Below, one piece after another: positions 1 through 24,970 of a DNA stretch of 34,035 nucleotides (its first letter is position 1; every line of letters starts with the position of its first letter). The position numbers and the translations under genes were made by a program. This DNA is from Bdellovibrionota bacterium FG-2. Its GTDB lineage: Bacteria; Bdellovibrionota; UBA1018. A model generated the notes under the pieces. It saw nothing but the letters and a program-made list of their open reading frames with translations. It did no database searches and was not told the origin of the DNA. The stretch is taken from NCBI GenBank assembly GCA_051382305.1, contig JBBCAV010000429.1, forward strand, positions 1 through 34,035. The letters are read 5' to 3'.

Positions 1-219
1 TAAAATAGCAAACGTAAAGCCCAAAAAGTTCATGAAACAACTTCTCGCTGAGGTTCGGGCACTCATGTACCCAATCCGCCCAGGCAGAAGTTATCCAAGA
101 GTTTCGATGCAACCTATAAAATCCTGGAATCTCAAGAAGTCGGCAAAACTAAGAGCGTTTGCAGCTCAGAGAAAAAATCCGACGGCGGCGAGGTGAACGG
201 GCTTATCCGGCTGCCATTG
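1..219 (+). mobile_element. Right end of an IS4-family insertion sequence (partial)
   Basis: An open frame at 2-196 ends ...YPIRPGRSYPRVS...*, a C-terminal motif typical of IS4-family transposases. It is followed by CTTATCCGGCTGCCATTG (202-219), whose reverse complement CAATGGCAGCCGGATAAG resembles IS4-type terminal IRs. Confidence 0.75.
2..196 (+). CDS. IS4-family transposase, C-terminal fragment (5' end outside window)
   Basis: Manual translation gives KIANVKPKKFMKQLLAEVRALMYPIRPGRSYPRVSMQPIKSWNLKKSAKLRAFAAQRKNPTAAR*. Confidence 0.7.
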   Translation, partial: KIANVKPKKFMKQLLAEVRALMYPIRPGRSYPRVSMQPIKSWNLKKSAKLRAFAAQRKNPTAAR

Positions 220-286
220 TATCTAACCGCTTGCTACGTCAAAAACCTGCCGCTGAAATTATCCCCTCAACACTGAGAGCAGTCCT

Positions 287-295
287 TGATACACT
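287..295 (+). promoter_or_regulatory. Putative extended -10 promoter of the aro operon
   Basis: TGaTACACT lies 9 nt before the aroA ATG. No Shine-Dalgarno sequence is visible. Confidence 0.35.
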
Positions 296-304
296 TAATT
301 CACG

Positions 305-1582
305 ATGATCAAAACTCTCCATCCAGCTGTTCGCTTAAGCGGTAAACCAAAAATTCCGGGGGACAAATCAATTTCCCACCGCGCACTCATCTTTGGCGCA
401 CTTGCACAGGGGCGGACCGAAGTAATCGACCCTCTCGAAAGCGGAGACGTTCATTCTACGGCGAAGTGCTTAGCCGATCTGGGCGTAAAATTCACCCGCG
501 AAGGCAGCAAGATATTTGTAGACGGTATGGGCGCACAGGGGTTTTTCACCCCCACAAGAACCCTGGATTGTGGAAACTCTGGAACCTCAATTCGTTCACT
601 CATGGGCGTCTTAGCAGGATGCGGTGTGACCGCAACACTCACCGGAGACTCCTCTCTTGTGGGACGGCCGATGAAACGAGTGGCAGAGCCACTGCGACTC
701 ATGGGCGCCAAGTTAAGCCTCACGAAAGACGACTACGCTCCGCTTACCGTTGAAGGCACAAAACTTCGCGCGATAGACTATCATCTCAGAATTGCTAGCG
801 CTCAAACTAAAACCGCGATCATGCTGGCCGCTCTTTTTGCCGAAGGGACGACGGTAATCCGCGGAGAAATTCACAGCCGCGACCATACCGAGCGCATGCT
901 TAAGCACTTCGGAGTAACAGTAGATTTATCGCCTACGTCGATTAGCATTAAGGGCGGGCAGAGACTAAAGGCCGCTCGAGTCACAGTCCCTGGAGATCCT
1001 TCGACTGCGGCCTTTTGGATGGCGGCCGCAAGTCTAGTCCCTGGGGCAAAGATTGAAATGGAAAATATTTCACTCAACCCCACCCGCATCGGCTTCATCA
1101 CTGCACTGCAAAAAATGGGTGCAAACATCACCATTCAAATCACGTCTGAAATTCCAGAACCTATTGGCACGGTAACGGTCGTTCCCGGCGCGCTCAGAGG
1201 GGTAAAAATTTCTAGAGAAGAAGTCCCCACCCTCATTGATGAACTCCCGCTGCTCGCCGTACTCGCCAGTCAAGCCACCGGCGTCACGGAAGTTGAAGGA
1301 GCAGAAGAGCTTCGAGTCAAGGAGACGGATCGAATCGAAGCGATGGCCGTAAATCTACGTGCGATGGGAGTCGAAGTCGAAGTACGCAAAGACGGCTTCC
1401 GGATTGAAGGCCCCCAGCTCCTAACGGGGGCATCCATTAACACCTTTCATGATCATCGCATCGCCATGGGTTTCAGCATTGCCTCTTTAGTTGCAAAGGG
1501 AGTGACAACCATACAGGGTGCCGATTGCGTCGGAATCTCATACCCCGATTTTTTTAACACCCTCGAAGAGCTCACCCAATAA
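305..1582 (+). CDS. aroA: 3-phosphoshikimate 1-carboxyvinyltransferase (EPSP synthase)
   Basis: Motifs PGDKSISHRA, LDCGNSGT, SAQTK, SRDHTERML, ELRVKETDRI and DHRIAM are present. Confidence 0.97.
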   Translation: MIKTLHPAVRLSGKPKIPGDKSISHRALIFGALAQGRTEVIDPLESGDVHSTAKCLADLGVKFTREGSKIFVDGMGAQGFFTPTRTLDCGNSGTSIRSLMGVLAGCGVTATLTGDSSLVGRPMKRVAEPLRLMGAKLSLTKDDYAPLTVEGTKLRAIDYHLRIASAQTKTAIMLAALFAEGTTVIRGEIHSRDHTERMLKHFGVTVDLSPTSISIKGGQRLKAARVTVPGDPSTAAFWMAAASLVPGAKIEMENISLNPTRIGFITALQKMGANITIQITSEIPEPIGTVTVVPGALRGVKISREEVPTLIDELPLLAVLASQATGVTEVEGAEELRVKETDRIEAMAVNLRAMGVEVEVRKDGFRIEGPQLLTGASINTFHDHRIAMGFSIASLVAKGVTTIQGADCVGISYPDFFNTLEELTQ

Positions 1583-2970
1583 TGAAAGCAGCGGTCATCG
1601 GCACTCCTGTCTCTCACTCCCTCTCCCCTGTAATATTTAGCTTCTTAGCGAAGCAAGTCGGGATGCCTGATTTTCATTACACCTCGCAGGAAGTTCCGCC
1701 TTCCCAGCTGACATTAACACTCAGTGAAGTGAAGGCTGACCCGCAATATGTCGGCCTCAATGTCACGCTCCCGCACAAACAAGCCATTCTGCAACACCTC
1801 GATCAGCTGGCTCCCGAAGTAAAATGCATTGGTGCCGCGAATGTCGTTCACTGTATTGAAGGGCGAACGATTGGATACAACACCGACGTTTTGGGCGTCA
1901 TTCGCACCCTCGAGGATCATCAATGTGATGTACGAGGCAATTCCGCCCTGATATGGGGCGCCGGCGGAGCCTCCAGAGCCGTGGCTTATGCCTTAGGGAA
2001 ACTAGGCGCCACGACCGTCAACATTTTGAACCGTGACTTCGATCGCGCAAGGATTTTATGTGCGCAAATCGGAGAAACATTCCCGCACGCCCTCTTTGTC
2101 CCCATCCTAGCCCACGACGAGACGCCAAAGATTACGACCCCCCTCTCGCTTTTGGTTAATGCAACTTCGGTAGGCATGAAGACAGACTGGATTTTTCCGA
2201 TAGATAAATTTCCTCTCTTGCCTGGCGCACTAGCCTTTGACCTCGTTTATAATCCCGAAAAAATCCCCTTTTACGCAATGGCCAAAATTAAGGGGCTTCG
2301 CGCCGTCGATGGGTTAGATATGCTGATTTACCAGGCACTTGCTACTTGGGAGATCTGGTTCGGACCTCTAGAACAAGCACAAATACCACAAGAAAGACTA
2401 CGTGATTTTCTATTGAACGGGCGGCAATCACGTCCTTTTTTTCTGACGGGCTTCATGGGAGTTGGAAAGACAAGGATCGGATCTATTCTCGCGAAAAAGC
2501 TAGGCTGGCAGTTCGTCGATACCGATCGACTTATCCAAGAGGAGATAGGTCTCTCAATTCCGGAAATCTTTGAAACCAAGGGAGAAGCCGCGTTCCGAGA
2601 TCTAGAAAAGAGAGCCATCATGAAAGTCGCTTACTGCCAAAAGACGATTATCTCCTTAGGCGGAGGAGCCCTCATGGATCTCGATAACCTGAGTTTGATC
2701 GAAAGGGCAGGTGACCTCATCTACTTAAGCGCAAGTGTCAGCACTTTACTCGAACGCCTTAGTCCGAGAGCAAGTCAGCGCCCGCTTCTCGCTAAGGCCG
2801 ACTCTCCGAACGAGAGTGTCCGCGAAGAAAAAATCCGCGCCCTTCTTGAACTTCGCGAGCCCGTCTACAACCGCGCTCGATTCAAAATTGAAACAGATCA
2901 CAGGGATCCAGAAGGCATCGCGGAGGCCATTTTGAAGCGCGTTGCAAAGGGCCCAAGAGGAAAATCATGA
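1582..2970 (+). CDS. aroE-aroK: Bifunctional shikimate dehydrogenase / shikimate kinase (AroE-AroK fusion)
   Basis: The N-terminal part has AroE motifs (HSLSP, NVTLPHK, GYNTD, GAGGASRA, DLVYNP, GLDMLIYQA). The C-terminal part has AroK motifs (GFMGVGKT, DTD, GEAAFRDLE, SLGGG, RPLL). Both lie in one ORF. Confidence 0.93.
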   Translation: MKAAVIGTPVSHSLSPVIFSFLAKQVGMPDFHYTSQEVPPSQLTLTLSEVKADPQYVGLNVTLPHKQAILQHLDQLAPEVKCIGAANVVHCIEGRTIGYNTDVLGVIRTLEDHQCDVRGNSALIWGAGGASRAVAYALGKLGATTVNILNRDFDRARILCAQIGETFPHALFVPILAHDETPKITTPLSLLVNATSVGMKTDWIFPIDKFPLLPGALAFDLVYNPEKIPFYAMAKIKGLRAVDGLDMLIYQALATWEIWFGPLEQAQIPQERLRDFLLNGRQSRPFFLTGFMGVGKTRIGSILAKKLGWQFVDTDRLIQEEIGLSIPEIFETKGEAAFRDLEKRAIMKVAYCQKTIISLGGGALMDLDNLSLIERAGDLIYLSASVSTLLERLSPRASQRPLLAKADSPNESVREEKIRALLELREPVYNRARFKIETDHRDPEGIAEAILKRVAKGPRGKS

Positions 2971-4070
2971 AGCCCCTAATTGTCAGAGTGCCATTTGCCA
3001 AAAAAGCCGCGCATTCATGTGACATTCGAATTGGTTCGGGAGCAACCCAGTTGCTTGGGCAATGGCTATCGCAATGCCGCTCCAAACGGGCTTTTATTAT
3101 CTCAGACGCAAGATTGACAAACGCGCGCTCAAAAGTTCGCAAAGCGCTTGCTTCGGCAGGATGGGAAACGCACGAAATTCCTGTGACAGCAGGAGAAGCG
3201 TTCAAAGACATTGAGGCGATCTATCCGCTCTACGGCAAATTGCTCAACGCAAAAGCCGATCGCAACGCGACTCTTTTTGCAGTTGGTGGCGGCTCTGTCG
3301 GTGATGCCGCGGGTTTTGTGGCCTCCACTTATTTGCGCGGCATCGATTGGGTAGGCATTCCAACCACGCTCTTGGCACAAGTCGATAGCGCCGTGGGAGG
3401 AAAAACCGGGATCAATCACCGTACGGGAAAAAATCTTATCGGAACTTTCCACCAGCCCAAGCTTGTCATATGCGACACTGATTTTCTATCCACGCTATCG
3501 ACCCGCGAGATTGTCTCCGGCTTGGGTGAAATCATCAAATACGGCATTACCTTTGACCCGAAATTCTTTGCCTTTCTCGAGAGAAACAATGAAGAACTCC
3601 TCGCGCGCGATTCAAGGTTCCTTACCAAATCCATTCGCACTTCTCTCATCTGGAAAGCCAAAAAGGTCGCATTCGATGAATTTGATCGCAAAGGGGTGCG
3701 CGAAGCCCTAAATTTTGGTCATACGTTTGGCCATGCCTTAGAATCTTTTACGAAGTATGAAACCTTCCAACACGGAGAGGCCGTAATTTGGGGGATGCGC
3801 TTTGCGCTGGCGCTCTCAGTGGTACGGGGAAAATTGGACGCTAAGACCTGCGACAAGATTGACTCGTTTTTAGCAACTTTTGCAGTTCCTCCTCTCCCCG
3901 CCAAATTGGGTGCAAAAGAATTGAGTGCGCTCATGGCAATAGATAAGAAAGTGCGGGACGGAAAAATTCATTTCGTACTTTTGAAGGCTCTCGGGCGAAC
4001 AGAGTCCGATAATGGAGTCACAAATCAAGACATCACGAAAGCTCTTTCGCTTTTGAGGGCTTCGTCATGA
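2967..4070 (+). CDS. aroB: 3-dehydroquinate synthase
   Basis: Motifs GGGSVGDAAGF, PTTLLAQVDSAVGGKTGIN, KNLIGTFHQP, LNFGHTFGHALE and HGEAV are present. Confidence 0.97.
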   Translation: MKPLIVRVPFAKKAAHSCDIRIGSGATQLLGQWLSQCRSKRAFIISDARLTNARSKVRKALASAGWETHEIPVTAGEAFKDIEAIYPLYGKLLNAKADRNATLFAVGGGSVGDAAGFVASTYLRGIDWVGIPTTLLAQVDSAVGGKTGINHRTGKNLIGTFHQPKLVICDTDFLSTLSTREIVSGLGEIIKYGITFDPKFFAFLERNNEELLARDSRFLTKSIRTSLIWKAKKVAFDEFDRKGVREALNFGHTFGHALESFTKYETFQHGEAVIWGMRFALALSVVRGKLDAKTCDKIDSFLATFAVPPLPAKLGAKELSALMAIDKKVRDGKIHFVLLKALGRTESDNGVTNQDITKALSLLRASS

Positions 4071-4540
4071 AACATGCTATGAACCTCCTCATCCTCCATG
4101 GTCCAAACCTCAATCTTCTCGGGGAACGAGAACCCGAGATCTATGGTTCTTTAACTCTCCCGCAGCTTAACCGAAAACTTCGCGAGTTTTCCTCTCAGTC
4201 TTCGTTATGGATTCAACTACGAATTCATCAATCCAACAGTGAGGGCGCCCTCATTGATCTTCTTCACAAAAATCGAAAATGGGCTCACGGGATCGTCTTC
4301 AATCCCGGCGCCTACACTCATACCTCCTATGCTCTGAGAGATGCGATTGCGGGAATTCAAGTTCCCACCATCGAAGTGCATCTCAGTGATATTCATAAAC
4401 GTGAAGCTTTCAGGCGCATTTCGCTGATCGCACCCGTCTGCCTAGCGCAGATTTCTGGGTTGGGGTGGAAATCCTATACGCAGGCAATCCAGAAACTCAG
4501 CACTAACTTCCAAGAATTCCAGAAAAAGGGAGCAAAATAG
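4067..4540 (+). CDS. aroQ: Type II 3-dehydroquinate dehydratase
   Basis: Motifs [26 protein letters not shown] and [14 protein letters not shown] are present. Confidence 0.97.
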
Positions 4541-4542
4541 AA

Positions 4543-5625
4543 ATGGCTGGAAACACGATCGGCAAGCTGTTCCAGGTAACAACCTTCGGTGAATCACATG
4601 GCGAACTCATCGGCGTGGTGATAGACGGGTGCCCTGCGGGGCTCGATTTGGACTTAGCATTCATTCAGGCGGAACTTGGCCGCCGCAGACCTGGCCAATC
4701 TAAAATTACCACACAGCGCAGAGAGCGCGACGAAGTAAGGTTCGTGTCCGGAATCTACGAGGGGAAAACCACTGGCACTCCACTGACAGCTTTAATCAAG
4801 AATGAGGACCAGCGCTCACAAGATTATGCCGATATCGCAAAAACCTTTCGTCCTTCTCATGCGGACTTTACCTATGAAAAGAAATACGGACTTCGAGACC
4901 CTCGTGGCGGAGGACGTTCCTCGGCTCGTGAAACTGCCGCAAGGGTCGTCGCGGGCGCAGTGGCCAAACTTTTTCTCAAGAAACATGGGATTAAGATCGC
5001 CGCTTATGTTTCGCAGGTCGGGTCGATTAGTTTAGACAAGGCCCCCAGTGAGGTGAATCTCAAGGCAATAGAAAAAAGCATCGTGCGGTGCCCGGATCCA
5101 AAGACTGCAAATGAAATGATCTCTTTAATTGAGTCAGTCCGTGCCAGTGGTGACACCATCGGCGGCGTCGTGACCGCCGTAATTAGGGGCTGCCCTATCG
5201 GACTCGGCGAGCCTGCTTTTGACAAACTTCACGCCGATCTTGGCAAAGGCATGCTGAGCATTAACGCCGTCAAGGGGTTTGAGTACGGCTCTGGATTTGC
5301 GGGAGTAGAGATGCGCGGGTCTGAACACAACGATGTCTTCGTGATGACCTCGAAGGGCCGGGCCATAAAAACTTCCACGAATTTCTCAGGCGGCATTCAG
5401 GGCGGAATCAGCAATGGAATGGACATCGAGTTTCGTGTCGCTTTTAAGCCGGTCGCCACGATCATGAAGTCGCAAAAAACCGTGGATAGAAAGGGAAAAG
5501 CTGTCACGATCAAAGGCAAAGGCAGACATGACCCCTGCGTGGTTCCAAGAGCGGTGCCTATCGTTGAAGCAATGGCTGCAATCGTCCTTATCGATCATCT
5601 TTTAAGGAACCGAGCAACAAAATGA
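4543..5625 (+). CDS. aroC: Chorismate synthase
   Basis: Motifs [24 protein letters not shown] and GRHDPCV are present. Confidence 0.98.
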
Positions 5626-6452
5626 TTAAGATTGGAATTCAAGGCGTTAAAGCTTCTTTTCATGACGTTGCGGCCCAGAAGTTTTTCGCAACGATCCAAG
5701 AAATCGAATGTCCTTCATTTCGAGATCTCTGCCTCAAGCTTCGGAATCGCGAAGCCGACTATTGCATCATGGCGATTGAAAATTCGATCGCCGGAAGCAT
5801 TCTGCCAAATTACTCACTGCTTGAGACATTTGGCTTCAAAATCATCGGCGAGGTCTATCTTCGAATCGAGATGAATCTCATGGCCCTGCCCGGGCAAAAG
5901 ATCGACGAAATCCGACTTGTCCAATCTCACCCCATGGCTCTACTACAATGCGATGAGTTTCTCTCCGAACACCCTCACATGACAGTCCTCGAAGCCACCG
6001 ACACCGCTGATAGCGCCAAGGACATACGAGATAGGAAACTTCTGGGCACCGCAGCCATTGCGAGCCGGCTTGCCGCTGAAACGTACGGCCTTGAAGTTTT
6101 GGCCGCAGGAATTGAAACGAACAAACAAAACTACACTCGTTTCTTAGTCATTTGTCGCAAAGAGGACTACCGGCCTGCTTCGCTCGCCAACAAATCTTCG
6201 ATCCGCTTTGAAGCCCCCGATCGTCCCGGAAGCCTCGGGCTTGTCTTAGAATGTTTTAGCCAACACTCCACTAATATGACGAAGATCCAGTCGGTCCCTA
6301 TCCTCGGACGGCCTTACGAGTACTCCTTTCATGTCGATCTAGAATGGGATAACTTAACACAGTATAATGTTGCGATGGCTGCAGTTAAGGAACGAGTCAC
6401 CAACCTAATTCAATTCGGCGAATATCCAAAGGGCGTGAGGCCATCGTTATGA
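5622..6452 (+). CDS. pheA: Prephenate dehydratase with ACT domain
   Basis: Motifs [18 protein letters not shown] and NYTRF are present, plus an ACT domain (DRPGSL...NMTKIQSVP). Confidence 0.92.
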
Positions 6453-7606
6453 TTATTGCACGCGCAAAACGCTTAGAGCAGGTGAGCGAGTATTACTTTT
6501 CAAAGAAACTTGAAGAGATTCGCCAAATGCGGAGTCAGGGAAAGGACGTCATTAACTTGGGGATAGGCAGTCCTGACCTCGCGCCCTCGTCCTCGACTCT
6601 TACTGCGGCGGCAGAGGCACTACATTCAAGCAAGAATCATGGATATGGCTCCTACCGATCTACCCCAGAACTAAGAGCTGCGATGGCCGAGTTTTATCAC
6701 AAAACCTATGGTGTGGGCCTTAATCCAAACGACGAAATTCTCCCACTTCTTGGCTCCAAAGAGGGTATTTTCTATATCTCGATGGCTTTTCTAGATCCGG
6801 GCGATGGCGTACTGGTTCCTAACCCAGGATATCCCGCCTACTCTGCTATTGCTTCGCTTGTGGGGGCAAAAATCCACACTTATGATCTAACGGCGGAAAA
6901 CGGCTGGCTCCCCGATTTTCAGAAACTAGAAGAAATGAACCTCACGGGATGTAAACTCATGTGGGTGAACTACCCCCATATGCCCACTGGAACACAGGCC
7001 GATAAGAGGGTTTTTGAGAAACTCATCGCATTTGGGAAAAGCAAAGGAATCCTGATTTGCAACGACAACCCCTACAGCCTGGTCCTTAACCCCGAACCCC
7101 CTTTGAGTTTACTGAGCGCAGATCCAAAACTGGAACATTGCTTAGAACTCAATTCTCTGAGCAAGTCATTCAATATGGCGGGCTGGCGGGTCGGCATGGC
7201 TCTCGCTTCACGTGAGATCATTGACGCGATTCTCCAAGTCAAAAGTAATGTGGATTCGGGAATGTTTCAACCCATTCAGACTGGAGCTATTGAAGCGCTT
7301 AAGAATCCAGAAGAATGGCATAGACAAAGAAACGAGATTTACGCCGAACGCAAGAAAGTCGCCTGCAAGATTGTCGAAAGCCTGGGATTGACTTGTGACT
7401 CAAATCAAGTCGGAATGTTTCTTTGGGCAAAAGCATCGCATGAAATTCCGGATGTTGCCCTGTTTTTGGATCGCGTTTTACGAAAGCATCATGTCTTTCT
7501 CACTCCTGGGTTTATCTTTGGCTCCAACGGCGTTCGCTACGTTCGGTGCTCTCTTTGCGCACCCGTGGACCTCCTTGAGGAAGCCCTAAGGCGGGTGAAC
7601 GAATGA
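6449..7606 (+). CDS. PLP-dependent class I/II aminotransferase (probable aromatic amino acid/prephenate aminotransferase)
   Basis: Motifs NLGIGSPD, GSKEG, PNPGYP, NYPHMPTG, DNPY and SLSKSFNMAGWRVG (PLP lysine) are present. The gene lies between pheA and tyrA. Confidence 0.88.
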   Translation: MIIARAKRLEQVSEYYFSKKLEEIRQMRSQGKDVINLGIGSPDLAPSSSTLTAAAEALHSSKNHGYGSYRSTPELRAAMAEFYHKTYGVGLNPNDEILPLLGSKEGIFYISMAFLDPGDGVLVPNPGYPAYSAIASLVGAKIHTYDLTAENGWLPDFQKLEEMNLTGCKLMWVNYPHMPTGTQADKRVFEKLIAFGKSKGILICNDNPYSLVLNPEPPLSLLSADPKLEHCLELNSLSKSFNMAGWRVGMALASREIIDAILQVKSNVDSGMFQPIQTGAIEALKNPEEWHRQRNEIYAERKKVACKIVESLGLTCDSNQVGMFLWAKASHEIPDVALFLDRVLRKHHVFLTPGFIFGSNGVRYVRCSLCAPVDLLEEALRRVNE

Positions 7607-8511
7607 AACTTACCGTAATTGGTCTAGGATTGATTGGCGGCTCCGTAGCCATAGATCTACGCCGGAGCGGTTTCGTAGGAGAAGTTGTGGGAGTGGATTC
7701 TAACGAGGCCCACCGTGCACAGGCACTTGAAATGAAAATCGTAGATGAGTGCCTGCCCCTTGATCGCGCATTGAAAGGCGCGCAACTCGTTGTGCTTGCT
7801 GTACCCGTTCACGCAATCGCCGCGATTCTTCCGGGTCTCCTCGATCTCGTTCCCGCAGACTGTACGGTGACCGACATGGGCTCCACAAAAGAGGGCATCT
7901 GTAAATCGGTCGCCACTCATCCAAAGCGAGGGCAATTCGTTCCTTCTCACCCGATGGCCGGAACTGAAAATTCGGGCCCGGGTGCCGCGCTTCGTGGACT
8001 CTTTCTAGGCAAAGTGGCTGTAATATGTGATGTGGCCGCAAGCGATAGGCTTCACCTTCAGCGCGTCGAGAAGATGTACGAGATCCTAGGCATGAGACTC
8101 TTACGCATGGATTCCTCTGAACACGATCTCCATGCCGCTTACGTTTCTCATCTCTCGCACATTACCTCCTTTGTTCTGGCAAACACGGTTCTTGCGAAAG
8201 AACAGAACGTCAATACAATCTTCGACCTTGCAGGCGGTGGATTCGAGTCAACGGTTCGTCTCGCCAAAAGCTCGCCCGAAATGTGGGAGCCCATCTTCGA
8301 GCAAAATCGCGAGAACATCATCCATGCTCTTGAGTCCTATATTGAGCATTTTCAAAATTTCCATCGCACTTTGGTGGAGCACGCTCCCGCTGAAACCCGA
8401 CAACTCATGGCGGACGCAAACCGGATTAGGCGCGTCCTAAATCAAATCAATACTCCAACACAAATAAAGCCAGAGGACCCAAGCAATGAAAGCGCTTCGA
8501 AGACGAATTGA
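7603..8511 (+). CDS. tyrA: Prephenate dehydrogenase
   Basis: Motifs GLGLIGGS, DMGSTK, HPMAGTE, HD...SHLSH and GFESTVRLAKSSPEMW are present. Confidence 0.95.
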   Translation: MKLTVIGLGLIGGSVAIDLRRSGFVGEVVGVDSNEAHRAQALEMKIVDECLPLDRALKGAQLVVLAVPVHAIAAILPGLLDLVPADCTVTDMGSTKEGICKSVATHPKRGQFVPSHPMAGTENSGPGAALRGLFLGKVAVICDVAASDRLHLQRVEKMYEILGMRLLRMDSSEHDLHAAYVSHLSHITSFVLANTVLAKEQNVNTIFDLAGGGFESTVRLAKSSPEMWEPIFEQNRENIIHALESYIEHFQNFHRTLVEHAPAETRQLMADANRIRRVLNQINTPTQIKPEDPSNESASKTN

Positions 8512-8776
8512 CGAGTGCGATCGTACCTTACTCAAGATCCTTGCCACGCGCTTTCGGGCGGCCAGAAAGGTGGGACTTTATAAACTATCACACGACCTCC
8601 CAGTTCTTCAAAAGTCTCGATGGGCTGAGATAATGGAGGCCCGTCTTAAACTCGCCAAGCGCCTGAGTTTAGATGAAGATTTCACTACGGCCATTTTCGG
8701 TTTAATCCACAAAGAATCCCTCAAGATCCAAAAAGAAGAACAACGCGCGAAAAAAGGAAAGAAGACGAGATCATGA
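8486..8776 (+). CDS. Stand-alone AroQ-class chorismate mutase
   Basis: Matches the CM_2 pattern LRRRIDECD...R...VGLYK...VLQKSRW...IHKESLKIQ. Confidence 0.9.
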
Positions 8777-10134
8777 AAAGTACCAAATGGACTCCAGGAA
8801 GTTGGCGAAAAAGACCCCAGAATCAGATTCCAGTATATGCGGATCCCGCAAAACTAGCGGCGGTGGAGGCGACGCTCGCGGGTTATCCGCCTCTTGTTTT
8901 TGCGGGCGAAGCTCGGCAACTCAAAGCTCGACTCGCACAGGTGGCGGCTGGAAAAGCGTTTCTACTCCAGGGAGGGGATTGTGCGGAGAGTTTTGGGGAT
9001 TTTCGCGCGAATTCCATTCGCGATAATTTTCGGATTCTACTTCAAATGGCCGTCGTACTGACGTTTGGCACTAAACTCCCCGTCGTTAAAGTGGGGCGCG
9101 TGGCAGGGCAGTTTGCAAAGCCACGGTCCAACGATCTCGAAACTCGCAATGGAGTTACACTCCCTTCTTTCCGAGGTGATGTCATCAATGGATTTGATTT
9201 CACCGAAGCCTCTCGCATACCGCAACCCGAGCGCATGGAGCGCGCCTACGTTCAGGCCGCCTCAACCCTCAACCTGCTACGCGCCTTCGCCCAAGGGGGA
9301 TACGCAGATCTTCATCACGTCCACTCCTGGAACTTAAACTTCGTAAAAAACAGCGCTGAAAATGCTCACTACGAGCAGATTGCCAAACGCTTGGACGAGA
9401 CGCTTGCCTTCATGGCGTCTATTGGGATTACGAGCGAAAACACCCCACAAATTCGTGAATCTGAGTTTTACACCTCTCATGAGGCGTTACTTTTACACTA
9501 TGAGCAGGCGCTCACGCGCCAAGATAGTACGACGGCCCGCCCTGGGGAAGGTTATGAAGGAGATTACTACGATTGCGCTGCCCATATGCTTTGGATAGGG
9601 GAGCGAACCCGACGGTTCGATGGGGCGCACGTCGAGTTTCTTCGTGGCGTAAAGAATCCCATCGGCCTAAAGTGCGGACCCGAAATGACAGATGAGGATC
9701 TCATTCGCCTCATCGACATACTTAACCCCGAAAACCAGCCGGGCCGCCTGACACTGATTTCTCGAATGGGCTTTGACAAAGTTGAATCCAAAGTACCCCC
9801 ACTTATTCGCCGGGTTCAGAAAGAGGGCCGTTCGGTTGTTTGGTGTTGCGACCCGATGCACGGGAACACTGTTACCACGCAAAATGGGTATAAAACCCGC
9901 CATTTTAGCCGCATCCTGGGCGAAGTGCAAAAATTCTCAGCCATTCATCGGGCCGAGGGAAGTTACGCTGGAGGTGTGCACTTTGAACTTACAGGCCGTG
10001 ACGTGGTGGAATGCTTAGGCGGCGATCAAGCCCTAACCGAAACTCATCTTGCACAGGGCCTCTATGAGACTTTGTGCGACCCGCGACTCAACGCTACTCA
10101 GGCGCTTGAACTTGCCTTCCAACTGTGTAAATAG
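8773..10134 (+). CDS. Class II DAHP synthase
   Basis: Motifs [45 protein letters not shown] and CDPRLN are present. Confidence 0.97.
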
Positions 10135-19731: not shown

Positions 19732-19985
19732 GGTTCTTCGGGAAAACGAGTGGGTAAAAAGGCGCGGTTTTTTTAACCTTGCAAAACTGTTCGGCTTACC
19801 GTTTTAACTCTCGCCAGCGCGTTTTTTGGTAAAATTTGTATTGAAAACAATCTCGAGACATGCAACAAAATGGTACTTTACACGGTAAAAGTGCGACTTT
19901 TTAATACGCTGTTTTTTTTCTAATCCACTTGTCGCGCACTTTCATGACATCAATACAACCTTCTTTCATGAAAGGAACCGTGCCC

Positions 19986-20900
19986 ATGTCACCTACGCCC
20001 ATCCCTTCGCTTACCCTGCAAATCCATCAGCGCGCTGTAGAACTTAGCGCCCGCTACAAAAGAGCTGAATCAGAATTACTGGAAATCCTCGATCAGGTTG
20101 ATCGTCACCGCGTCTATCTCAAGCGCGGACACTCAAGTCTTTTCCTCTACGTCGTCCATGAGCTTGGATTGTCCGAAAGTGTGGCCTACAACCTTATTAC
20201 GGTTGCGCGCAAAGCTCGTGAAGTGCCAGAGTTGAGAGGATTAATTGCGGATGGGACAATCACACTTTCGAATGCCCGCAAAATCGCACCCGTGTTAACC
20301 CCTCAAAACAAGGCCGAATGGCTGCAAAGAGCGGCGTCGCTGTCCCAACGCCAACTTGAAAAAGAAATCGTAAAAGTCAGACCCGAAGCCGCCACACCAG
20401 AAAATGTGAGTTACGTGACCGAGAATCGTGTCCGCCTAGAAGTGGGCCTCTCTGAACAGGACATGCTCGCGCTCAGGCGCGTACAGGACCTCTTGAGCCA
20501 AGCACGGGGACGTTCTGTATCCCTCGAAGAAGTCATTGCGCACATGACTAGAGAGCATCTCAAACGTCACGATCCAGTGAAACGAGCGAAACGCCAGATC
20601 GTTCGAAAGGGGAAACAAGCGCAAAAAGCGCCGCCAGCCGAAGCGCAACCTGTAGCGATACAGGCGATGGAGTCGCCAGAACGTAAGCGCGTCCCAATTC
20701 CGACGAATATCCTTCATCAAGTTCGTCTACGCGATCAGGGTCGATGCACGTACACTCACGAAAACGGGCAAAGATGCAATCAAAGCAGGTGGATTGAGAT
20801 TCATCATAAGATCCCCATATCCGAAAAAGGAACAAACACGTTGGAAAACCTTGAAACTTTATGCACCCAGCACCACAAGAGGGCTCACGCTACGGCATAA
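19986..20900 (+). CDS. HNH endonuclease with DUF222-like helical N-terminal domain
   Basis: The C-terminus reads RDQGRC...C...EIHHKIP..KGTNTLENLETLCTQHHKRAH; the N-terminus contains GHSSLFLYVVHELGLSE. An AAAGGA RBS supports ATG 19986 over the TTG at 19929. Confidence 0.85.
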   Translation: MSPTPIPSLTLQIHQRAVELSARYKRAESELLEILDQVDRHRVYLKRGHSSLFLYVVHELGLSESVAYNLITVARKAREVPELRGLIADGTITLSNARKIAPVLTPQNKAEWLQRAASLSQRQLEKEIVKVRPEAATPENVSYVTENRVRLEVGLSEQDMLALRRVQDLLSQARGRSVSLEEVIAHMTREHLKRHDPVKRAKRQIVRKGKQAQKAPPAEAQPVAIQAMESPERKRVPIPTNILHQVRLRDQGRCTYTHENGQRCNQSRWIEIHHKIPISEKGTNTLENLETLCTQHHKRAHATA

Positions 20901-21628: not shown

Positions 21629-22933
21629 ATGAAATTCTACGTTCTGGTTACTTGCTGTGTGATGAGTATTGTGTGTGCAAATCTTGTGGGGTGCTCAAGC
21701 ACCGTGGCCACTCCGACGCCGGACCCCTCAGCAAGCGCATCGCCTTCACCCAGTGCAAGTGCCTCACCCGCTGCCGCAGCAACTCCGGGCCTTAAGGTTA
21801 CCGCCACGGTCTCAAACCTTTCCGCAAACGCGCTCATGCTAGGGAGCGCCTCTACGCTTCGTAACCCTATGCGCGACACAATGAACGCCTCAAGCCGTAC
21901 GGGCGAAACGCTCGTGACTCCAGCGTCGTACAAATTGGCCCTCGTTAATTTTTGGTTACTCAAGAGCGATGGAACCGAGATCAACGTGATCAACTCGGAT
22001 GCCGCGAACCCCACCTATACCGAAGAGCGTCCGTTGATCCTGGATTTTTCGACAGAGGGCGCCTCCCAGGAACTGTTCTCGGGTACGACATTTACAGCAG
22101 GAACTTATACCGGCTACAAAATGCAGTTTCTCTATATCGAAATGAATTTGCCTTGCGCGTTTCATGTTCCGAATCCCGCCTGGGAAACAGAATTTACAGA
22201 TGCGACTATTCTCGATCATTCCACCACGCGCAATTTTAGGACCTACTTCAACGCCGTTGGCAAATATTGGAAGCGCGATTTCGTGGTCGAGCTTGTGGCG
22301 GACTCCGGCGAGTGGTACTGGCCCAGACGCTCGGTTCAAGACGGCGCCGGCACGAAGAACTTCTTTATCCCTGTTGCCACCAACGACCATCCTCCGGGAG
22401 GCCCAGGATTTACGAGTGTCATTGATCTTTTTTCAAACGAAGAATTCTGGGGACCTGACTCCGGTTTCAGCACAAACACGGACCCCATTATTGTCGGAAC
22501 CCATTCGTCAGTTGGAGGCGTGAATGCGGTACTTCCATCCTCCTTCACCATCCCCGACGCACTGACTGAGTTTTTTAACATCGACATCAAGATCGATGTT
22601 TCAAATACGATGATGTTTGGCGAAACGAGCACATTTGCAGGTGATGTCACGCCCTTTCCAAGCGTGTTGGATCTAGGTCCGGCGTATGCTGCCGGAGGTG
22701 CGGGGTTTTACGGAGACCAAGGCCTTCATCCTTTGATGCCTGCCTTTACCGTGACAGTCACCAATGGCGCCACGGATGCGAAGGCTACGGCTGATAAGGC
22801 GTTTCAAATTCCGGAGGCATGTGTGACAGGCAATTGGCTAGAGCCCGTGTTGTGTCAGACGAATTACTGCCCAACGCACGCGACTGACAAGTTCTGTGTG
22901 GATTATGCGGCAGTGAAGTCCAATACTCCTTAG
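21629..22933 (+). CDS. Lipoprotein of unknown function with Pro/Ser/Ala linker and Cys-rich tail
   Basis: It has a GGGGAG RBS, lipobox LVGC, a PSASASPSPSASASP linker, a beta-rich body, and four Cys in the last 40 aa. Confidence 0.75.
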   Translation: MKFYVLVTCCVMSIVCANLVGCSSTVATPTPDPSASASPSPSASASPAAAATPGLKVTATVSNLSANALMLGSASTLRNPMRDTMNASSRTGETLVTPASYKLALVNFWLLKSDGTEINVINSDAANPTYTEERPLILDFSTEGASQELFSGTTFTAGTYTGYKMQFLYIEMNLPCAFHVPNPAWETEFTDATILDHSTTRNFRTYFNAVGKYWKRDFVVELVADSGEWYWPRRSVQDGAGTKNFFIPVATNDHPPGGPGFTSVIDLFSNEEFWGPDSGFSTNTDPIIVGTHSSVGGVNAVLPSSFTIPDALTEFFNIDIKIDVSNTMMFGETSTFAGDVTPFPSVLDLGPAYAAGGAGFYGDQGLHPLMPAFTVTVTNGATDAKATADKAFQIPEACVTGNWLEPVLCQTNYCPTHATDKFCVDYAAVKSNTP

Positions 22934-22935
22934 AA

Positions 22936-23935
22936 TTAGAAATGGCCGACCTGGCCCATGTATTTTCCGCCGGTTTTGTTTGCCGTGCCAGTGACGTGTC
23001 CTGCTGACATGATCGTACCAGTTAGTTCGGAGCCCGGCTTGAAGCGGATTACCTTTTTTGCCGAAGCTTTAGAAACCGAGAACGATCCCAGACCATCAAT
23101 CGTTACGCCGTCGGCGGTTTGTGCAGCCATCTGAGCCATTTGCACGGCAAAGTTCTGCAAAAATAGGTTTAATTCTTTTTCATTCAGGTCTGCTTCTTTC
23201 AGCAAGAAGTCAAATTGCTTATCGGTCAAGCCTAGATTTTCAGATTTCGGATTGAGATAGGCTTTGCCTTGTTCTTCGATCAACGTGTTCAGAACGACAT
23301 CTGCTGCCTTAAGAAGCGCAGCGGAACTAGCTACGAACTCAAAACCCTTCTCCCTCTTCTTCGCAAAATCCTCAATAGCCTGGAAAAGGGGCGCAGAGAC
23401 GGCAGCACTGATGACGGCTCCTCCTGGAACAAACGGGGCCGCGATACGGACAGCGTCTGCTTTAACGGCGTCAGAATTCTTACTCAAAGTTTCTGTGTAA
23501 AAACTTAAAGATTCCAGAAAAAGGTCCTCGCCCTTTAGTTCGATACTTGCAAATTCGCGGAGCAAATCGGACTCAGCAAAAACTACTGAAGTCCAATAAT
23601 TCTGCGCAAAGCGATGGGCCGCAGCTTTGACCATCGCCTGATCGGGATTGAAAATAATTTGGCCATCATCCTGCGAGAAGATTCCAACACCCGCAAGCGC
23701 CAGCGATTTACCACTATTCAAAGATTTCGTGGTCGATGTAATGAAAGCATCCAGCGCCTTTTTCGCCTGCTCCTTTGTGAGTCCGGTCTTGGCAGAGAGA
23801 TTTTCCATCAGCATGACGGGGTACTTCCTGCCGCCAAAATCACTGCCGTTCAGCGGCACTCGCAGCCGATGCAGTGGACGATACCGCGATGAGCCCCAAA
23901 ACAGTGACAGACATGATTTTCGAAAATTTTCTCAT
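22936..23935 (-). CDS. Tandem HU/IHF-like (DNABII) domain protein; signal peptide separated by a 1-nt frameshift
   Basis: A GAGGAG RBS and ATG at 23935 give MRKFSKIMSVTVLGLIAVSSTASAA, which stops at 23840. The body (23859-22936) has two HU-like segments: LSAKTGLTKEQAKKALDAF...LAGVGIF and EADLNEKE...VTIDGLGSFSVSKASAKKVIRFKPGSEL. Confidence 0.7.
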
Positions 23936-24051
23936 AAGCAGTAACTCCTCGGGTAATCTTTCAAAATATCCAAGGTCGGCGCCGCCTGTTTAAGGCTTTG
24001 CCACCTGACCTAAGATCTTACTCATTACTTCAATATTTTCGAATACGAATC

Positions 24052-24066
24052 ATTCCCACAAAGAAT
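24052..24066. promoter_or_regulatory. LysR-type T-N11-A operator
   Basis: The palindrome ATTC-N7-GAAT sits in the divergent intergenic region, with a degenerate copy at 24036-24050. Confidence 0.55.
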
Positions 24067-24088
24067 ACTTCGGTGTATCCTCATTACT

Positions 24089-24970
24089 ATGGAACTCAAT
24101 CATCTCCGTACCTTTTATGCCGTCGCCCGGGAGGGCGGTTTCACCCGCGCCGCTCAGGTTTTGCGCGTTCAACAACCCGCCGTGAGCAAGTCGATCAATT
24201 TGCTTGAAGAATCTCTGGGGATCTTACTTCTAGAAAGAAGTCGCACGGGCATTCGCTTAACTCAGGCTGGAACGCTGATCTATCAATGCTGCGAAAAAAT
24301 ATTTTCTGGGGTGGAAGAAATCCAAGTCATCGCGAGCGCCGAAAAGAAAGAGTGCAAGGGCCCCTTACTTTTTGCGGCAACCGAGATGGTGGCCGTATAC
24401 CTTATTCCGCAAATGCTCAAAAGTTTCTTAAAAGAATATCAAGAAGTTCAGCCCCGATTTTTTGCGGGAAACTCCGCCCAGATTTGCGACGAACTCCTTG
24501 ACGGAAAAGCCGACTTCGGAATGTTCTATACAAAAATTGAAGACGAGCGTTTTGTCATTAGCGATCTTGCAAAAGTCCCTGTCGCGCTTGTTGTTGCCGC
24601 AAAGTTTCGTAAGAATCCTGAGGTGATGAAATCCTATGTTTCTGCGCGAACCCAAGATTACCCCAAGAGCATTGTCGAGCGAGAAATTCGAATACTTGGT
24701 GGCTTTGGTTTAAAGTATCCGCCAAAGATTGAAACGAACAACTACGACGCCCAAAAACAGGCCGTCCTCTCAGGCCTGGGTTGCAGCATTTTGCCCCTCT
24801 ACATGATTCAGGATGAGGTAAAAAAGGGGACGATGCATGTGATCGCGACCCCACCGGATCTCGCCTATACGTTAAGGCTCGTTATTCGACGAAACGCGGT
24901 TCTTTCCAGAAACTCGCGCGTCTTCTTGGATTATTTCAGAAGTGAGATTTCGAAGCTAGTTTCATCCTAA
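24089..24970 (+). CDS. LysR-family transcriptional regulator
   Basis: It has the HTH LRTFYAVAREGGFTRAAQVLRVQQPAVSKSINLLEESLG.LLER, followed by a substrate-binding domain. Confidence 0.95.
   Translation: MELNHLRTFYAVAREGGFTRAAQVLRVQQPAVSKSINLLEESLGILLLERSRTGIRLTQAGTLIYQCCEKIFSGVEEIQVIASAEKKECKGPLLFAATEMVAVYLIPQMLKSFLKEYQEVQPRFFAGNSAQICDELLDGKADFGMFYTKIEDERFVISDLAKVPVALVVAAKFRKNPEVMKSYVSARTQDYPKSIVEREIRILGGFGLKYPPKIETNNYDAQKQAVLSGLGCSILPLYMIQDEVKKGTMHVIATPPDLAYTLRLVIRRNAVLSRNSRVFLDYFRSEISKLVSS

Follow-up and report, generated by a model that had tools for sequence, protein, structure and literature searches.

Positions 22936-23950 of contig JBBCAV010000429.1 (Bdellovibrionota bacterium FG-2), a stretch of 34,035 nucleotides referred to below as the window, contain on the reverse strand a gene whose product joins two HU-like domains in one chain. 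The locus is very probably a frameshifted copy of a gene for an exported tandem-HU protein. Taken as a whole, the explanation that we favour, with a somewhat better than even claim, is that this gene is rare, that its intact form encodes a single-chain tandem-HU protein exported by the Sec pathway, and that the window copy was frameshifted recently by a base inserted at 23857-23860, which would cut the body of the protein off from its signal peptide.

The assembly to which the window belongs, a metagenome-assembled genome (MAG; G000), consists of 433 contigs and is 85% complete with 4.4% contamination. It holds a second copy of the gene on the 2,477-base contig C388. The product of this copy, P0002, has 352 amino acids (aa), is 64% identical to the window protein, and begins with a signal peptide in frame with the rest of the chain (MRKYLKLVSGVFLASFFVSITASA-AGPLNGSEFGGRKYPV...).

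The shifted reading frame and the second copy

An earlier note on this DNA had described a GAGGAG ribosome-binding site (RBS) and an ATG at 23935, a short open reading frame (ORF) with a signal peptide that runs into a stop at 23840, and a body ORF starting 25 codons and 1 nt downstream. On re-checking, these coordinates are correct: ATG 23935 and GTG 23859 are 76 nt apart with the body in the +1 frame, and removal of one base would therefore give a protein of 332 aa, as the note had stated. The body frame in the window is open over 331 aa and contains no internal stop.

The small ORF, translated as MRKFSKIMSVTVLGLIAVSSTASAASAAERQ up to its stop, has an MRK n-region, a hydrophobic core, and ASA/ASA cleavage motifs. 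By a home-made rule that considers hydrophobicity, charge, and small residues at -3/-1, it has the properties of a type I Sec signal peptide (charge +3, KD10 2.50, ASA sites), and the signal peptide of P0002 is closely similar in this respect (charge +3, KD10 2.53, cleavage ASA↓A, mature start AGPLNG). When the two are aligned, 12 of 24 residues are identical, the MRK start and the TASA end being common to both; the small ORF is thus not a chance ORF. The AGGAGT before the start is also conserved in the second copy (DNA alignment A1). Over 304 aligned codons, the window body and P0002 differ with dN 0.230 and dS 1.544 (near saturation); the resulting dN/dS of 0.15 indicates that purifying selection acted on both copies during most of the time since they diverged. 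The part encoding the signal peptide is constrained as well.

At the junction, the window reads GCGAGTGCC where the second copy reads GCGGG-GCC, and the window is one base longer. Similarity to the second copy follows the upstream frame through ...TASA and the body frame from PLNGS on, and the frame of similarity switches exactly at AGTG, as a simple one-base insertion would give. A Logan contig of 8023 bases (word depth 14.1), from the only public run containing the stretch (X1), is identical to the window over 22700-24300 without any indel. It carries the same base, which excludes an artefact of one assembler. That the extra base exists in the cells is fairly likely. The lesion, if real, would be young, and the intact upstream RBS, ATG, and signal peptide point to a very recent change. 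The earlier note had left three options, namely a lesion, an assembly error, or a switch by which the product is either exported or cytoplasmic. The first is favoured here as a one-base insertion; the second, as an error of a single assembler, is excluded, and the third is not supported.

An error of sequencing or consensus is the alternative that survives best, and we consider it unlikely. In that case, the gene would be intact and, as with the second copy, its product would be an exported preprotein (332 aa). This agrees with a body carrying no other lesion under the selection described above, and with a signal-peptide ORF, RBS, and cleavage motif that are all intact. In addition, the depth of 14.1 is modest, and the other assembly may share the same reads. 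Opposed to this are the recovery of the same base by two assemblers and the nature of the site: indel errors of short reads concentrate in homopolymer runs, and AGTG is not one.

HU folds, arms, and charge

The two HU-like segments described in the earlier note each pass the Pfam cut-off on their own. In the whole body ORF, Bac_DNA_binding (PF00216) is matched in two stretches with E 1.9e-13. Scanned separately against the cut-off of 22.4 bits, the HU1 segment (aa 1-100) scores 35.1 bits and the HU2 segment (aa 205-307) a marginal 23.0 bits, and no Pfam family was found in the middle segment (aa 95-210) scanned alone. The hydrophobic stretch noted between the segments is present (IAAPFVPGGAVISAAVS); in structural models of both copies, it is a loop between helices, and no membrane helix is formed there.

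These models were made with AlphaFold2. The window model (8-row alignment) has a mean predicted local distance difference test (pLDDT) of 60.1 and a predicted template modelling score (pTM) of 0.53, and the model of the second copy (9-row alignment) has a mean pLDDT of 73.3, with 85-94 in the HU parts, and a pTM of 0.74. Both show the order helix-helix-strand-strand-strand-helix twice, with turns in place of arms (tight turns at 64-67 and 262-271 in the window model), a helical domain between the halves, and a disordered tail. HU2 of the window model (209..284) superposes on solved HU chains with Z 5.5-6.0 and a root-mean-square deviation (rmsd) of ~2.1 Å over 71-76 residues; HU1 of the second-copy model (37-106) does so with Z ~5 and rmsd 1.7-1.8 Å over ~70 residues at ~30% identity. 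Both predicted halves match HU chains at rmsd 1.7-2.3 Å over ~70 residues.

In the models, the two halves pair like HU subunits, which argues for an intramolecular pseudo-dimer, as the earlier note had proposed. A structure search with the second-copy model (unfiltered, 48,161 chains) gave four best matches, each aligned from HU1 through HU2: 8snb_1K of the sea-urchin doublet microtubule (Z 10.5, rmsd 2.8 Å, 141 residues, model 37..330), 8v3l_A, a Tetrahymena proximal microtubule inner protein (Z 9.5, 3.0 Å, 140 residues), 9e2g_2N of T. brucei (Z 8.9, 3.4 Å, 147 residues), and 2iif_A, an engineered single-chain IHF (Z 8.9, 4.3 Å, 130 residues). The window model matches 8v3l_A with Z 10.7. Judging from its title and from the accessible part of PMC10705406, 8v3l_A is probably CCDC81B, whose CCDC81 domain is the eukaryotic tandem HU. 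The identities of 8snb_1K, 9e2g_2N, and 8g2z_0T were not confirmed from the literature. A Foldseek search with the window model gave no match at E <=0.001, though HU chains appeared with probability 0.9-0.99. Matches of the middle domain to Cse1-type and other helical bundles (Z 6-8.4) were discarded, this level being unspecific for helical bundles. It can also be noted that both HU halves of both models align to chains V and R of PDB 9io5, a subunit of the G1-ATPase twin motor of Mycoplasma mobile (Z 8.1-10.4, ~133 residues, fold search only); in the accessible part of the paper describing 9io5 (PMC11864180), an HU-like fold is mentioned for no subunit.

The earlier note had also found that both segments are without the RxGRNPxTG tip of the beta-arm, and alignment A3 reveals these as deletions. 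The window is gapped where relatives read ...NRAARSGRNPQTGATIQ..., and its HU1 reads GIFSQDDGQIIFNPD; with both arms deleted (alignments A2/A3), the RNPxTG tip and the intercalating proline are absent. The charges have changed too. HU1 of the window has net charge 0 and an isoelectric point (pI) of 6.3, HU2 has net charge -1 and pI 5.2, and the mature protein has pI 6.0; the second copy is similar in both charge and pI. In distant relatives, HU2 is armed, with net charges of +8 to +12 and pI >10. The loss of the arms, together with neutral or acidic halves, makes DNA bending of the canonical DNABII type unlikely, and this lineage probably does not perform it.

The most probable course of events can be described as follows. 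In the intact form, represented by the 352-aa copy on C388, a type I signal peptide would lead the protein across the inner membrane and be cut off near ASA↓A. The mature protein would fold as an intramolecular pseudo-dimer in which HU1 and HU2 pack on each other like the two subunits of an ordinary HU dimer; a helical domain of ~135 residues would separate the halves, and a flexible tail would end in a 17-residue tag. Without its two beta-arms and their RNPxTG tips, and no longer positively charged, the protein would not bend DNA in the manner of HU/IHF and may act outside the cytoplasm as a scaffold or adaptor with the tag as its docking peptide, a role that we propose only tentatively.

The earlier note had suggested binding of extracellular DNA or an effect on a foreign nucleoid. 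That this is an exported DNABII-like protein with extracellular or prey DNA as its target, the frameshift being incidental, seems improbable to us. The protein does belong to the HU family, its relatives carry signal peptides, and in the distant ones HU2 is still basic and has an RTGRNPQTG arm, consistent with binding of DNA beyond the cytoplasm; furthermore, the family of the host includes an Oligoflexia MAG, and the class Oligoflexia sits with predatory bacteria. However, both the window protein and the second copy are without both arms and the conserved prolines, and their HU halves are neutral to acidic against the +8 to +12 of relatives. The closest structures, tandem arm-truncated HU of the CCDC81 type, are microtubule inner proteins and not DNA binders according to the accessible part of PMC10705406.

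Comparison with known systems places the protein near several of them. It resembles HU/IHF (PF00216) in that each half is above the family cut-off, superposes at ~2 Å in the models, and packs like a subunit. Unlike HU/IHF, which consist of two basic subunits of ~90 aa, it is a single armless chain (307-352 aa) with halves of pI 5.2-6.3, a Sec signal peptide (in the family), a 135-aa helical insert, and a C-terminal tag. It shares with the HU-CCDC81 clade two HU domains in one polypeptide, truncated hairpins, and one dimeric unit. For this clade, both bacterial and eukaryotic, tandem truncated-hairpin HU was proposed to be dimeric within one molecule (Burroughs et al. 2017, PMC5499826, in its accessible part). 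The Pfam models of the clade are not reached: HU-CCDC81_bac_2 (PF18175), for which the cut-off is 35, gives 30-31 bits (31.1 in one scan), and PF18289 and PF14908 remain below 26.1. As far as the accessible part of PMC5499826 goes, bacterial CCDC81-like proteins have cytoplasmic HU domains, a disordered linker, a membrane helix, and C-terminal SPOR/LysM domains, and tandem arm-truncated HU is described there only as the cytoplasmic N-termini of such membrane-anchored proteins. The window family differs in its N-terminal signal peptide and in the large helical domain between the halves, and the window protein has no membrane helix and no Pfam match to SPOR or LysM. In engineered single-chain IHF (2iif/2iie), HU-type halves are likewise covalently joined, and the model aligns across both; however, that protein is an artificial construct that binds DNA and has both of its arms, whereas the window protein is natural and arm-less and has an export signal. 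The only signal-peptide HU mentioned in the same part of PMC5499826 is the plastid-targeted eukaryotic HU. Its signal directs import into an organelle that holds DNA, while a bacterial Sec signal leads out of the compartment of the chromosome. Thus, the HU superfamily and tandem arm-truncated HU as in CCDC81 are known, and the exported de-armed variant is new.

Weighing the evidence and the fate of the window copy

Several points weigh against a frameshifted copy of an exported, non-bending pseudo-dimer. Signal peptides were judged by the crude home-made rule and not by SignalP. The paralog lies on a contig of only 2.5 kb in a MAG with 4.4% contamination and could come from another strain or organism. 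HU2 clears the Pfam cut-off by only 0.6 bits. Confidence in the window model is low (mean pLDDT 60), alignments of only 8-9 rows stand behind both models, and the HU pairing may be something that AlphaFold has learnt from its training set. The Logan run may be the MAG's own sample, and a systematic read error or a minority variant would be compatible with it. The loss of binding is deduced from sequence, and HU bodies can still touch DNA. Finally, the tag has a single carrier per genome and no common neighbour, which argues against a general sorting signal. On the other side, the earlier note had named two findings that would speak against its view, homologues without a signal peptide and a failure of both segments to adopt the HU fold, and neither was made.

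If the window does hold a frameshifted copy, as we favour, one inserted base parts the signal peptide from the body, and the window copy therefore cannot be exported. It would be either a young pseudogene or, at most, the source of a cytoplasmic 292-aa remnant initiated at ATG 23814. That this remnant, a tandem-HU scaffold newly re-purposed for the cytoplasm, is functional here is very improbable. The gene caller's model P0001 does begin at ATG 23814 and gives these 292 aa without a signal peptide; a Shine-Dalgarno-like AGGAAG lies 9 nt before this codon, and MLMENLS... begins about where canonical HU begins. Nevertheless, the conserved PLNGSDFGGRKYPV would be lost in such a product, and the upstream RBS, ATG, and signal peptide are intact.

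A programmed or regulatory frameshift, in which a +1 shift yields the exported form and internal initiation the cytoplasmic one, is hardly credible: a +1 shift would restore the frame, with the signal-peptide frame ending at UGA five codons past the site and an internal start AGGAAG-N9-ATG available at 23829-23812, but the site (GCG AGT G CC at the shift, CAG UGA at the stop) is unlike that of prfB, neither AGTG nor CAG-UGA contains a slippery codon, CAG-UGA cannot re-pair in +1, there is no Shine-Dalgarno-like stimulator just upstream, similarity changes frame at AGTG rather than at the stop, and the second copy and all relatives read have a single frame. The switch between two forms suggested in the earlier note is likewise not supported, as AGTG has no slippery or stop-adjacent context and the frame changes exactly there. 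The features of the locus are listed in Table 1.

Table 1. Features of the tandem-HU locus in the window
Feature	Position	Strand	Details	Source
Shine-Dalgarno-like GAGGAG	23945..23950	-	9-nt spacer, then ATG 23935	read from sequence
Orphaned signal-peptide ORF, 31 codons	23840..23935	-	stop TGA 23840-23842	ORF list
Single extra base	23857..23860	-	AGTG here, GG-G in second copy	DNA alignment A1
Body ORF, mature part of tandem-HU protein, 307 codons/aa	22936..23859	-	GTG 23859; stop TAA 22936-22938	
Candidate internal start	23812..23829	-	AGGAAG 23829-23824, 9 nt, ATG 23814	read from sequence
Conserved N-terminal mature peptide PLNGSDFGGRKYPV	23815..23856	-	13/14 residues identical to second copy; low model confidence	
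HU-fold domain 1, aa 15-73	23641..23817	-	two helices, three strands; arm cut to turn SQDDGQ	
Helical middle domain, aa 74-208	23236..23640	-		alignment A3 and models
Hydrophobic stretch IAAPFVPGGAVISAAVS, aa 139-155	23395..23445	-	within middle domain	
HU-fold domain 2, aa 209-286	23002..23235	-	arm deleted (GSFSVS-KASAKKVIRFKPGS)	
C-terminal disordered tail	22939..23001	-	pLDDT <50	
Conserved 17-residue C-terminal tag GTANKTGGKYMGQVGHF	22939..22989	-	end of tail	

Distant relatives, the C-terminal tag, and neighbouring genes

The gene is rare. Among 41 related genomes, the tandem-HU protein was found in G000 only, and a search of 401 genomes of the phylum with a three-row profile found it in three: G000, G189, and G415. 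The proteins of the latter two, which belong to one genus, have 360 and 363 aa and consist of a signal peptide, an arm-less HU1, a middle domain, and an armed HU2; the middle domain contains HEAAHV(V/A)QQ followed by four DGHVTVLK repeats. There is no copy in G001 (98% complete), a genome of the same genus as G000, where the neighbouring LysR gene is kept and flanked by other genes. About 150 bases from the C388 copy there is, at L003 1907..2152, a 3' remnant of a Tn3-family transposase comprising its last 74 residues (Pfam DDE_Tnp_Tn3 positions 316-389 of 389, E 8e-14). This remnant and the patchy distribution suggest that the tandem-HU gene is accessory and possibly mobile.

An exhaustive HMMER search of 1.84 billion representatives revealed 148 proteins at E <=0.001, nine at <=1e-10, and two at <=1e-30; the nearest relative, P0003, has 328 aa (E 4.8e-49). 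One of the relatives is, by its source name, an HU family protein of a Flavobacteriaceae MAG. A homology search with the single ORF over 3595 candidates returned only the protein itself and the second copy, and the profile A3 search revealed five proteins among 8000 scored candidates. Locus searches with profile A4 gave 192 pattern matches in genome contigs and 108 in viral contigs, none confirmed as relatives; a tblastn search of P0002 against plasmids gave no match, and no usable match to P0002 or P0004 was found in the ESM Atlas.

Of the first 16 distant relatives read, 15 have signal-peptide-like N-termini. The crude rule was applied to 44 relatives of 190-450 aa, namely all 41 HMMER hits of this length (P0001 left out) with P0002, P0150, and P0151 added, and 33 of them passed as Sec- or Tat-like. 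By eye, P0040 and P0083 also bear signals, both of the twin-arginine type, as do P0150 and P0055, the latter truncated; P0011, P0019, P0059, P0064, P0067, P0081, and P0093 do not. P0008, P0012, P0015, and P0049 start with Tat motifs of the SRR(T/D)VL type, and P0012 has a weak Pfam Tat-signal match. In a subgroup of two-HU proteins of ~240 aa (P0008, P0012, P0015, P0040, P0049, and P0083), SRRxVL signals occur together with DLIPGxGDxRR between the halves, and this arrangement suggests Tat export of a folded HU pseudo-dimer.

To our knowledge, canonical HU/IHF carry no export signal. The premise of the earlier note that DNABII proteins are without signal peptides therefore holds for canonical HU/IHF, while the metagenomic relatives look like an exception. 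The note's proposal of an exported protein family is borne out in that the second copy and the closest distant relatives have in-frame N-termini that look like Sec-type signals. In the literature, no report of a signal-peptide-bearing bacterial HU was found; the supplements of PMC5499826, not covered here, could list some.

The middle domain aligns to an eCIS_core-like HExxHVVQQ region of relatives, the window having REKGFEFVAS against HELTHVVQQ. Residues 95-210 of the window are not recognised as eCIS_core/DUF4157 (PF13699); among relatives, P0013 passes (24.8 vs 22), and P0005 and P0007 are below the cut-off. Neither eCIS_core nor T4_gp19 families were matched in the window's own genome, but this carries no weight, since control genomes were equally silent. 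The linkers between HU halves of relatives hold recurring short motifs: HELTHVVQQ (the end of eCIS_core), RKRPGRVKYSNVTLKRG, DGHVTVLK with up to four repeats, and DYNSSRSN. They are carried by P0005, P0006, P0007, P0010, P0011, P0013, P0025, P0030, P0032, P0045, P0067, P0080, and P0150 and by L009 2569..3045. The RKRPGRVKYSNVTLKRG motif gives weak matches to the tail-tube family T4_gp19 (E 1.7e-4 in P0080). P0032 is an RHS-repeat protein of 2108 aa with RKRPGRIKY at its C-terminus; it contains HELTHVVQQ and repeats VVKFRPGSELxDKVK, a motif of the C-terminal part of HU, ~10 times.

G000 itself encodes three further paralogous HU-related ORFs (C131 43280..43654, C111 4276..4710, and C115 8841..9215) of ~110-125 aa, lysine-rich and with KPRWSFP. 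Their match to the HU model is confined to positions 15-88, and all three are without a signal peptide. Four canonical HU/IHF genes are present beside them.

The tag at the end of the tail (consensus GTAN[KP]TGGKY[MV]GQV[GQ]HF) also ends unrelated exported proteins. In the second copy, it reads ANKTGGKYVGQVQHF (L003 1707..1754). It was found at the C-terminus of an unrelated 424-aa lipoprotein of the Oligoflexia MAG G018 (L002 295..1569) and on 147-aa signal-peptide-bearing proteins of three metagenome loci (L007 620..1063, L008 635..1078, and L009 1801..2244), one of which is a stretch of a Melioribacteraceae MAG. Every carrier has an export signal. The degenerate DNA pattern of the tag, amounting to ~47 bits with an estimated <0.1 chance matches in the searched collections, occurs in two of 75 genomes of the family (reversed control, 0), once per carrier genome and twice in G000. 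It had 0 matches in viral contigs, and no common gene family was found in the neighbourhoods of the carriers. From these sequences, we can only propose that the tag is a docking or a released peptide. Beside the Melioribacteraceae carrier, there are small secreted proteins with RKRPGGIKY and NYNSSISN.

Extracellular HU/IHF hold biofilm DNA together, and their exit route is debated. If a family of HU-fold proteins with Sec/Tat signals is real, bacteria have also evolved dedicated exported versions of HU. The armed relatives from G189, G415, and metagenomes are testable candidates for handling DNA in the periplasm or the matrix. The window lineage would follow the opposite trend, an HU pseudo-dimer kept as a scaffold after its DNA-binding parts were lost, in parallel to eukaryotic CCDC81. 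In all likelihood, the gene in the window was broken only recently, and its own biological importance is limited accordingly; the multi-HU proteins with Sec/Tat signals and one armed, basic half are the broader and more interesting lead. A more extended view, which we consider doubtful, is that the relatives represent an undescribed environmental class of Sec/Tat-exported multi-HU proteins of the DNABII type, periplasmic or extracellular, with one arm-less and one armed basic half; the window lineage would be a de-armed offshoot of this class with a portable 17-residue peptide, docking or released, that moves between unrelated exported scaffolds across phyla. The tag in different phyla is a small separate puzzle and could mark a common envelope partner.

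On one side of the tandem-HU gene, a LysR regulator gene (24089..24970) is transcribed divergently from it; on the other side, the gene of a 434-aa lipoprotein converges with it, with 2 nt between the stops. Promoter-like and terminator-like sites were not more frequent than in shuffles, and no compositional anomaly was seen around the gene. The lipoprotein-like ORF (21629..22933) has a PSASASPSPSASASP linker and a Cys-rich end and no Pfam family; its homologue in G001 lies on another contig than the LysR gene of that genome. Kinship of this lipoprotein with the tag-bearing one of G018 was considered and rejected, as the two are unrelated (best E 0.59). Positions 305..10134 of the window contain a compact operon for aromatic amino-acid biosynthesis. 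Among its genes are an ORF in which shikimate dehydrogenase and shikimate kinase are fused (1582..2970) and one for a class-II DAHP synthase (8773..10134). A patchwork of genes of unknown function follows the operon. Among the remaining ORFs, one of 323 aa (19929..20900) has an HNH nuclease motif at its C-terminus. It matches at least 20 places in G001 with 62-87% DNA identity, 14 of these matches spanning 550 bases at 67-73%, and is a multi-copy family or a mobile element.

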